Assembly: GCF_055900595.2 (NCBI RefSeq)
Contig: NZ_CM148325.1
DNA: 64,000 nt
Strand: one strand, 5' to 3'
Shown here in pieces: positions 20,771-21,648 of the stretch (the stretch's first letter is position 1; each line of letters opens with the position of its first letter). Position numbers and translations under genes: made by a program. The notes under the pieces were generated by a model. That model was given only the letters and a program-made list of their open reading frames with translations. It searched no databases and was not told the origin of the DNA.

Positions 20771-21295
20771 ATGAAACGTAAACTTATTGCCTTTGTGATT
20801 CTGGCTACATCATCCTGTGGATATGCAGCCACCAAAGATGTAACAATGAATCTTGTTGATAGTGACGGAAAAGAGCGAAATATTGGTAAAATAACCATCC
20901 AGAAGACACCCTACGGGCTGCTGTTCACCCCTGATCTTCACTCCTTACCCGCCGGCATTCATGGTTTTCATGTACATGAAAACGCAAGTTGTGCTCCTGC
21001 CCTGAAAGATGGAAAAACTGTCGCTGCTTTATCTGCAGGTGGTCACTTTGACCCGGAAAAAACAGGGAAGCATCTCGGTCCATGGTCTCCTGATGGCCAC
21101 CTAGGTGATCTCCCTGCGCTTTATGTCACTCATGACGGAAAAGCAACCTACCCGGTGCTTGCGCCAAGACTATCTGAATTAAAGGAGCTCGATGGCCGTT
21201 CGCTAATGCTCCACGCAGGAGGTGATAATCATGATGACCATCCTGAACCTCTAGGTGGCGGTGGTGCAAGAATTGCCTGTGGTATCATCCCATAA
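20771..21295 (+). CDS. sodC: Periplasmic Cu/Zn superoxide dismutase SodC
   Basis: 174-aa ORF with signal peptide and Cu/Zn-SOD motifs ([35 protein letters not shown]). Confidence 0.8.
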
Positions 21296-21423
21296 TCAAT
21301 CAGGTAAGGGATATCCTCCCTTACCCTTAATCTTCCCTGGCGGCATGTGCATATCTTTCAGTTACTGTGAGATACCTGTATTACGGTGTCTTTTTAGCTC
21401 ACAGAAATATCAGACAGCCCGTT

Positions 21424-21648
21424 TCAGTGTTTTATTACCTTAATCTTTTTACGGCATTCTTCAGCTCTTGCGCATGCTATTTTTTCACCTGTTTCATAAC
21501 ATTGCTGGCAGCCTAATCCAAATTTCATCGCCATATCATAACCTTCCCGAAAACCTCGGAACCACGCGTTACGAAGGTATTCATCATATTCCCCGTAGTC
21601 AATAATAACCATTTTATTTTCATGGGATTTTCCGGTATTCTCACTCAT
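21424..21648 (-). CDS. Small hypothetical protein (~74 aa, Cys-containing)
   Basis: Internal ATG at 21648 preceded by a GAGG ribosome-binding site; MSENTGKSHENKMVIIDYGEYDEYLRNAWFRGFREGYDMAMKFGLGCQQCYETGEKIACARAEECRKKIKVIKH; no family recognised. Confidence 0.25.
   Translation of the reverse strand: MSENTGKSHENKMVIIDYGEYDEYLRNAWFRGFREGYDMAMKFGLGCQQCYETGEKIACARAEECRKKIKVIKH

Follow-up and report, generated by a model that had tools for sequence, protein, structure and literature searches.

A small conserved gene of an undescribed family beside a mobile-type sodC in an Escherichia coli aerobactin/sit pathogenicity island

In Salmonella and EHEC, additional copies of the periplasmic enzyme SodC are established as cargo that adds to fitness and virulence. 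When such a sodC is met with a short ORF converging on it, the question is whether that ORF is a gene at all and, if it is, whether it travels and works with the dismutase. We addressed this question for a sodC locus in a 64,000-nucleotide stretch of DNA (contig NZ_CM148325.1 of assembly GCF_055900595.2), hereafter the window. A first-pass annotation, made from the letters alone, had read here a periplasmic Cu/Zn superoxide dismutase between IS fragments, with a convergent, Cys-containing ORF of about 74 aa downstream. The small ORF proved to be placed exactly, on the minus strand at 21424-21648, and encodes four Cys. The locus and its immediate surroundings are laid out as follows.

20771..21295, + strand: sodC, a complete ORF of 174 aa (ORF listing and direct reading)
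21424..21648, - strand: small ORF, WP_001470144.1, 74 aa, 8.7 kDa, a RefSeq "hypothetical protein"
about 17.7-19.9 kb: IS110, IS200/IS605 and IS256 remnants, left of the sodC/small-ORF pair
from about 22.3 kb: IS3 remnants, right of the pair, with a group II intron RT pseudogene

The small ORF converges on sodC across a spacer of 128 nt, and the two lie amid IS debris in the E. coli aerobactin/sit pathogenicity island. The window was 99.9-100% identical to chromosomal islands in many E. coli strains. In the RefSeq annotation of NZ_CP054368, a shiF-like MFS gene, iucABCD-iutA and sitABCD are followed by IS110, IS200/IS605 and IS256 remnants and then by sodC and WP_001470144.1; beyond the small ORF come IS3 remnants, the group II intron RT pseudogene and ibrAB, and finally more IS debris, iha and degenerate ICE genes. 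The placement between IS fragments therefore held, with remnants of three families on the left and of IS3 on the right. The ORF listing and the RefSeq annotation showed no phage genes near sodC in the window; IS remnants in the iuc/sit island are found there instead. The description of the locus as an AT-rich pocket stood only in part: G+C content was 0.39 in the small ORF and 0.38 in 21649-22286, against 0.48 in sodC and 0.49 in the window. Given 0.38-0.39 across the small ORF plus its 640 bp of upstream DNA, and 0.48 in sodC, the pocket is the small-ORF side of the locus, not sodC.

The window has the makeup of a mosaic, decaying ICE/PAI without a tRNA gene. Amid the IS debris, ibrA (PAPS-reductase-like) and ibrB (ParB-like) are intact at about 28503-30358 (+); the group II intron RT pseudogene occupies about 23868-25391 (-) and iha 48422-50509. 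An Rfam scan of 19.5-23.5 kb gave no match inside the sodC/small-ORF module. At 22565-22647 (+), a sub-threshold match to the Salmonella island sRNA isrC (30.8 bits, gathering threshold 39; E=0.0008) lies within an IS3-like remnant (22287-22900); many ColV-type plasmids carry this remnant at about 99% identity.

The identity of the larger gene is well defined. SodC matched Pfam PF00080 Sod_Cu (E=6e-32, 111.3 bits, cut-off 28.9), the NCBIfam SodC equivalog NF007628 (218.4 bits, cut-off 165) and PHROG_1975, "superoxide dismutase precursor" (3e-89), and its best PDB match was Salmonella SodCI (1eqw/6d52, E=1e-64). The copper ligands H67, H69, H92 and H148 and the zinc ligands H92, H101, H110 and D113 are all present, as are the disulfide pair C74/C170 and the active-site R167, and these ligands, the Cys pair and the Arg align with those of K-12 SodC, SodCI and SodCIII. 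Direct reading and alignment with known precursors show an N-terminus made up of a basic n-region, a hydrophobic core and a small-x-small cleavage site. With matches above the cut-offs, complete ligands and a legible export signal, SodC is, as far as sequence can tell, an exported, periplasmic Cu,Zn superoxide dismutase precursor, in agreement with the first reading, and it would be expected to have superoxide dismutase activity that removes periplasmic superoxide.

Comparison with other SodC types placed the enzyme among mobile copies. Its protein identity was 91% to a K. pneumoniae copy (L002), 80-82% to EHEC prophage and plasmid SodC, 71% to a metagenome copy (L006), 62% to each of Salmonella SodCI (Gifsy-2) and SodCIII (Fels-1), and 57% to chromosomal K-12 SodC; it is thus nearer to prophage SodC than to the chromosomal enzyme. 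A neighbor-joining tree rooted on K-12 SodC paired the E. coli island and K. pneumoniae proteins as sister to the EHEC prophage clade, with L006 SodC branching just outside the two. By this phylogeny the island SodC belongs to the mobile ("phage-type", SodCI/SodC-F-like) clade, which upholds the earlier view of sodC as island- or phage-type cargo and makes it a further member of a clade that was already known. The dN/dS of sodC relative to the K. pneumoniae copy was 0.09. Enzymes of this clade are characteristically dimeric and protease-resistant, with partial lipid anchoring through the signal-peptide Cys. In the island enzyme, Cys16 of the signal peptide (TSSC) aligns with the AASC lipobox of SodC-F; position -3 to this Cys is a Thr, so processing and lipidation of the island enzyme are uncertain.

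Island-type sodC was present in 125 of 5,426 complete E. coli genomes (about 2%) at 99% DNA identity or more, and prophage-type sodC, with 76-78% DNA identity to the island gene, in about 570 of the same 5,426; the DNA of the housekeeping chromosomal sodC is too diverged to show in this blastn survey. Carriers of the island type include many poultry and human isolates and extend to plasmids of E. coli and E. albertii and to one K. pneumoniae assembly.

We then asked whether the small ORF is itself a gene. A GAGGT Shine-Dalgarno sequence precedes its ATG (21648) by 7 nt. Homologues occur in K. pneumoniae (P0004, 81% aa identity) and in the metagenome sequence L006 (P0008, 75 aa, 55-65% identity depending on the aligner), and the ORF is intact at 74-75 aa in these three diverged lineages, free of internal indels. 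Between E. coli and K. pneumoniae its dN/dS was 0.24 with a dS of 0.43, near the 0.46 of sodC; among the five alternative frames, three gave dN/dS values of 0.86-1.23 and two gave 0.27 and 0.43. Against L006 synonymous sites were saturated (pS 0.91), with pN at 0.25 overall and 0.155 over core residues 19-66. Amino acid variants within E. coli (S8T, E10K, V14I, Y18C, G19E and E20D) are confined to residues 8-20, and the core has none. An extended reading of 119 aa, starting at 21783, was discarded, as its frame is lost in K. pneumoniae through a 1-nt indel. Taken together, these comparative patterns indicate that the small ORF is a real gene under purifying selection, presumably transcribed separately, and more than a chance reading frame.

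Signals around the two genes, read directly or found through conservation, are listed here from left to right.

20635..20770, + strand: conserved upstream region of sodC, 87% identical to K. pneumoniae
20650-20670, + strand: motif CTAATTTGCATAATTAATTAC with a -10-like CATAAT, upstream of sodC
20717-20733: palindrome CTGTT-N7-AACAG in the sodC upstream region
20763-20767, + strand: sodC Shine-Dalgarno GAGGG in the sodC upstream region
21302..21326, both strands: G+C-rich, terminator-like hairpin between the convergent genes (terminator scan, 9-10 bp stems)
21362..21407, + strand: second, imperfect hairpin (inverted repeat I9) followed by a T-run, also read directly
21656..21660, - strand: small-ORF Shine-Dalgarno GAGGT (direct reading), conserved in K. 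pneumoniae
21676..21687, - strand: perfect 12-bp palindrome AAAGTATACTTT, within what is presumably the small-ORF 5' leader
21749..21777, - strand: predicted sigma-70-like small-ORF promoter, -35 TTGAAT at 21777-21772, N17, -10 TATACA at 21754-21749
21778..21814: right-hand limit of the DNA in common with K. pneumoniae, homology ending at about 21814

The CTAATTTGCATAATTAATTAC motif precedes sodC in K. pneumoniae, L006 and the Stx2a phage as well as in the E. coli island; it could serve all of them as a promoter (-10-like CATAAT/TATAAT/TATTAT) or as an operator. The APEC O2-211 and plasmid loci lack it: of the sodC upstream region they keep no more than the final 64 bp (from 20707). The palindrome nearer to sodC, taken as CTGT-N9-ACAG, invites comparison with a LexA box. 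A LexA box requires N8 spacing, and on inspection we rejected this reading because the spacing is N9. A by-eye check, as opposed to a formal scan, gave no convincing OxyR, PhoP or Fur sites. Between the genes, the hairpin at 21302..21326 keeps its stem in K. pneumoniae with a changed loop, and the one at 21362..21407 is a weak, possible candidate for a sodC terminator. On the small-ORF side, AAAGTATACTTT is a candidate operator; it is identical in K. pneumoniae, and a different palindrome, ATACAGTGTAT, takes the equivalent position in L006. The predicted small-ORF promoter was recognized through conservation, a simple promoter scan having given no match at TTGAAT/TATACA: TTGAAT is invariant in the three lineages, the -10 reads TATACA, TATAAA or TAGAAA, and the arrangement TTGAAT-N17-TA(T/G)A(C/A)A lies about 95 nt upstream of the small-ORF start in all three.

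The first-pass annotation had further suggested that the small ORF might be co-transferred with sodC, and the boundaries of the homologous DNA agree with this. E. coli and K. pneumoniae share window positions 20635-21814, a segment of 1,181 bp with 85% DNA identity that holds the sodC upstream region, sodC, the spacer and the small ORF with its promoter, and nothing else. Its flanks are unrelated: the E. coli segment lies among IS debris, the K. pneumoniae one beside a FecCD-type ABC transporter operon. The K. pneumoniae contig terminates, beyond the small ORF, in a stretch (L002 1-95) that is 84% identical to window 17629-17723, the end of an IS110-family remnant 3 kb upstream of sodC; this is a hint that a related IS may have travelled with the module in E. 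coli and K. pneumoniae alike.

A third lineage, a metagenome bacterium (L006/L007), carries the small ORF 752 bp from a gene for a 174-aa SodC, on the opposite strand and divergent, with an IS3 fragment between the two and katG 465 bp downstream of the small ORF. L006 also carries, at 4613-4864 (-), a glutaredoxin-like ICE gene whose homologue in the window is at 50954-51247 (+), which makes the two loci cargo of related ICE-type islands. The window copy itself matches Pfam Glutaredoxin weakly (E=0.029) and adjoins degenerate TIGR03756/03757 ICE genes. Within E. coli the shared unit is longer, 20707-23229, and occurs in at least three chromosomal contexts (the iuc/sit island, APEC O2-211 and dptFGH), adjoining sucrose-utilization and hsd genes in APEC O2-211; it is also found on poultry-associated E. 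coli and E. albertii plasmids. Co-transfer is thus supported by a discrete segment in K. pneumoniae, a third lineage and these several chromosomal settings.

Searching for further homologues covered about 15 billion proteins in total. A phmmer search of 1.84 billion cluster representatives returned the three lineages and one repeat-inflated chance match, and a profile search of 5.8 billion clusters added no lineage beyond the three. Neither the 100,044 species genomes nor IMG/VR yielded a match to the small ORF when scanned by back-translation, and no record in phage GenBank encodes a homologue. Scanning JGI metagenomes yielded eight small-ORF loci, all of the E. coli type and all (8/8) with sodC adjacent. 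Conserved homologues therefore exist, and sodC stands beside each: in every lineage a gene for a 174-aa SodC lies on the other strand, at a distance of about 750 bp or less from the small ORF, and the flanking DNA differs. Since database-wide searches yielded only three lineages, the small ORF is rare and, where seen, always beside a mobile-type SodC. The chance match, P0009, is a 382-aa metagenome tandem-repeat protein whose E-value of 1.8e-6 is summed over 7 repeats, and we set it aside as probably fortuitous; it has "CYETG" in common with the small ORF. We found no paper that mentions WP_001470144.

The encoded protein is hydrophilic (GRAVY -0.80, pI about 7.7) and has no signal peptide or TM segment. 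Its Cys residues, 47, 50, 59 and 65, are spaced C-x2-C-x8-C-x5-C; C47, C50 and C65 are the same in all three lineages, L006 has Tyr in place of C59, and conservation is almost unbroken from R26 to A62. An AlphaFold2 model built on the three-sequence alignment (mean pLDDT 77.5; above 90 over about residues 30-60) has a disordered N-terminus, 1-17, followed by helices 18-42 and 47-73 arranged as a hairpin, in which C47-x-x-C50 opens helix 2 at the tip, straight after a turn at 43-46. Small residues recur at each fourth position (A28, G32, G36, A40 and G44 on helix 1; G54, A58 and A62 in helix 2), which fits very close helix packing. The model thus predicts a soluble helical hairpin with an apical CxxC. 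A linker-joined dimer model (mean pLDDT 59.7, pTM 0.49) scored an isolated beta-bridge at residue 46 and at its equivalent in the second copy, residue 150, and a tip-to-tip contact of two copies is a low-confidence guess.

The statement that the small ORF is of no recognizable family was corroborated: Pfam (searched member-wise as well, at E<=10), NCBIfam, PHROGs, PADLOC and profile searches of PDB sequences gave no family, the single weak match being to one member of DUF7574 (E=0.023), and fold searches with the model returned generic helical hairpins and no specific relative. Several families with superficially similar features were considered and rejected. RMF/CrpP (PF04957) gave no Pfam or NCBIfam match at E<=10 and its motif order GYxAG, WxxGWRE is not observed; the likeness of its W-x-x-G-aromatic-R-E motif to E. 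coli RMF is an 11-residue local one (RNAWFRGFREG vs RSQWLGGWREA, pairwise E=0.018) in a different helix. Position 43 is Phe where the ZAS motif (HxxxCxxC) has His, the Cys spacing differs from that of DksA/TraR (CxxC-x17-CxxC), neither of these has a Pfam match, and CsoR-like and Bfd-like readings fail on Cys spacing or profiles.

What the pair does can be proposed with graded confidence. Both genes have stayed intact and adjacent despite saturated synonymous sites and replaced flanks, and we infer from this that the small protein acts together with the oxidative-stress cargo. The explanation to which we lean, and which we hold to be somewhat probable, is a compact two-gene oxidative-stress defense cargo module that would have moved between genomic islands, ICE remnants and plasmids of Enterobacterales. 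Its first gene, sodC, would supply the exported Cu,Zn superoxide dismutase that clears superoxide in the periplasm; its second would supply an 8.7-kDa soluble cytoplasmic protein, most likely in a thiol- or metal-switched accessory or regulatory role. Two hairpin tips might share a metal or form disulfides and so alter the interaction with a partner, and that altered interaction could tune the expression of sodC (and of katG, in one lineage) or the response of the cell. That it acts directly as a chaperone is unlikely, given that the small protein is cytoplasmic and SodC reaches its mature form in the periplasm.

A less probable account, to which we still give real weight, accepts the small ORF as a gene and holds its function to be unrelated to SodC: an orphan regulator, an addiction or anti-defense remnant, or island "dark matter", both genes having been caught on one ancestral fragment of about 1.2 kb. 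With only three lineages known, the adjacency could descend from one ancestral locus rather than from selection, and common descent of the arrangement and selection for linkage are not cleanly separable. The small ORF is always on the strand opposite sodC, so the two are not co-transcribed, and the sodC genes of sister-clade prophages and plasmids have no small partner ORF. Loss of the partner is also documented among carriers: it is interrupted or truncated in about 21 of the 125 E. coli genomes. IS5 is inserted at codon ~69 (21438-21443) in the dpt-context 1-844 group (L009), an IS3 element cuts it in all plasmid copies, removing the N-terminal 28 codons (breakpoint ~21519 in plasmid loci H1-H5), and another IS-associated junction lies at ~21499 in L004. 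Because sodC is retained in such carriers, the partner is not required to keep it. Nevertheless, the linkage has outlived saturated synonymous divergence (sodC dS 1.7-2.2), complete turnover of the flanks and the local rearrangement that left an IS3 fragment between the genes in L006, where the other neighbor is katG, a second oxidative-stress gene. As an observation on the DNA itself, three different IS-associated breakpoints fall within the 225-bp small ORF in separate E. coli/E. albertii lineages.

A more ambitious form of the two-gene module, which we regard as doubtful, would make the small protein the founder of a new family of cytoplasmic redox/metal switches serving acquired oxidative-stress genes. 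A hook-like CxxC dimer would sense oxidant or metal and control sodC (and katG) through a protein or DNA partner, and prophage sodC morons would have lost it. The same conserved CxxC and C65 could instead belong to a cytoplasmic Zn/Cu buffer or donor that aids metallation or metal homeostasis and is not a regulator. The association with a Cu,Zn enzyme would suit such a protein, as would an island setting with many metal-uptake genes (iuc and sit in the window, the FecCD-type ABC transporter in K. pneumoniae). Even so, we judge it improbable: the protein has no signal peptide and so would not be where SodC is metallated, none of the known metallochaperone families or folds matches it, and its conserved Cys number only three, a His or Met cluster being absent. 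That the ORF is untranslated, its DNA conserved as the 3' region of sodC, as the sodC terminator or as an antisense RNA convergent with sodC, would accord with convergent transcription units and a bidirectional hairpin between them and is scarcely credible, given the strong bias of substitutions to synonymous sites in the small-ORF frame alone, the constant length and absence of frameshifts across 55-81% aa identity, the conserved Shine-Dalgarno sequence and an L006 copy that is no longer downstream of sodC, so that an antisense or 3'-UTR role cannot be conserved.

The finding is a modest one: sodC cargo was already known, and the new element is a conserved, exclusive small partner gene of an undescribed family. 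Such a partner suggests a second component of the cargo unit, hidden in annotation as "hypothetical". It would be a new small-protein regulator should it prove to affect SodC expression or the oxidative or metal response, and a well-documented orphan passenger gene should it prove to have no effect on SodC.

Among known systems, the Rad50/SbcC-type zinc hook also carries an apical CxxC on a two-helix hairpin, as is predicted for the small protein. The latter is a stand-alone protein of 74 aa, however, and the ATPase, the long coiled coil and any sequence or significant fold match to Rad50 are all absent; the resemblance is one of geometry and not of family membership, and the idea that two tips could share a metal in the manner of a zinc hook is a tentative analogy that we would not press. 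Chromosomal E. coli SodC (b1646) and Salmonella SodCII belong to the same enzyme family with the same ligands as the island enzyme, but chromosomal E. coli sodC lies in a different neighborhood, ydhK-sodC-ydhF-ydhL, and its DNA goes undetected by blastn. Salmonella SodCI (Gifsy-2) and SodCIII (Fels-1) are, like the island enzyme, horizontally acquired extra periplasmic Cu,Zn-SODs; they are more distant than EHEC SodC and are encoded by prophage tail-region morons without the small ORF. A role in virulence is established for SodCI, that is, for the Salmonella enzyme and not for the island gene.

The closest relatives are the EHEC prophage enzymes (SodC-F1/F2 of O157:H7 and the Stx2a-phage sodC), at 80-82% protein and about 76-78% DNA identity, which have the upstream motif and the signal-peptide Cys (SSC/ASC) in common with the island gene. 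The SodC-F prophage enzymes are dimeric and stabler than the chromosomal enzyme, are expressed in log phase and anaerobically, are partly lipid-anchored via the signal-peptide Cys, and function without a small partner ORF (PMC2569942). The EHEC phage gene is a moron set between tail genes I and J without the small ORF, whereas the island sodC is bounded by IS elements and accompanied by its partner.
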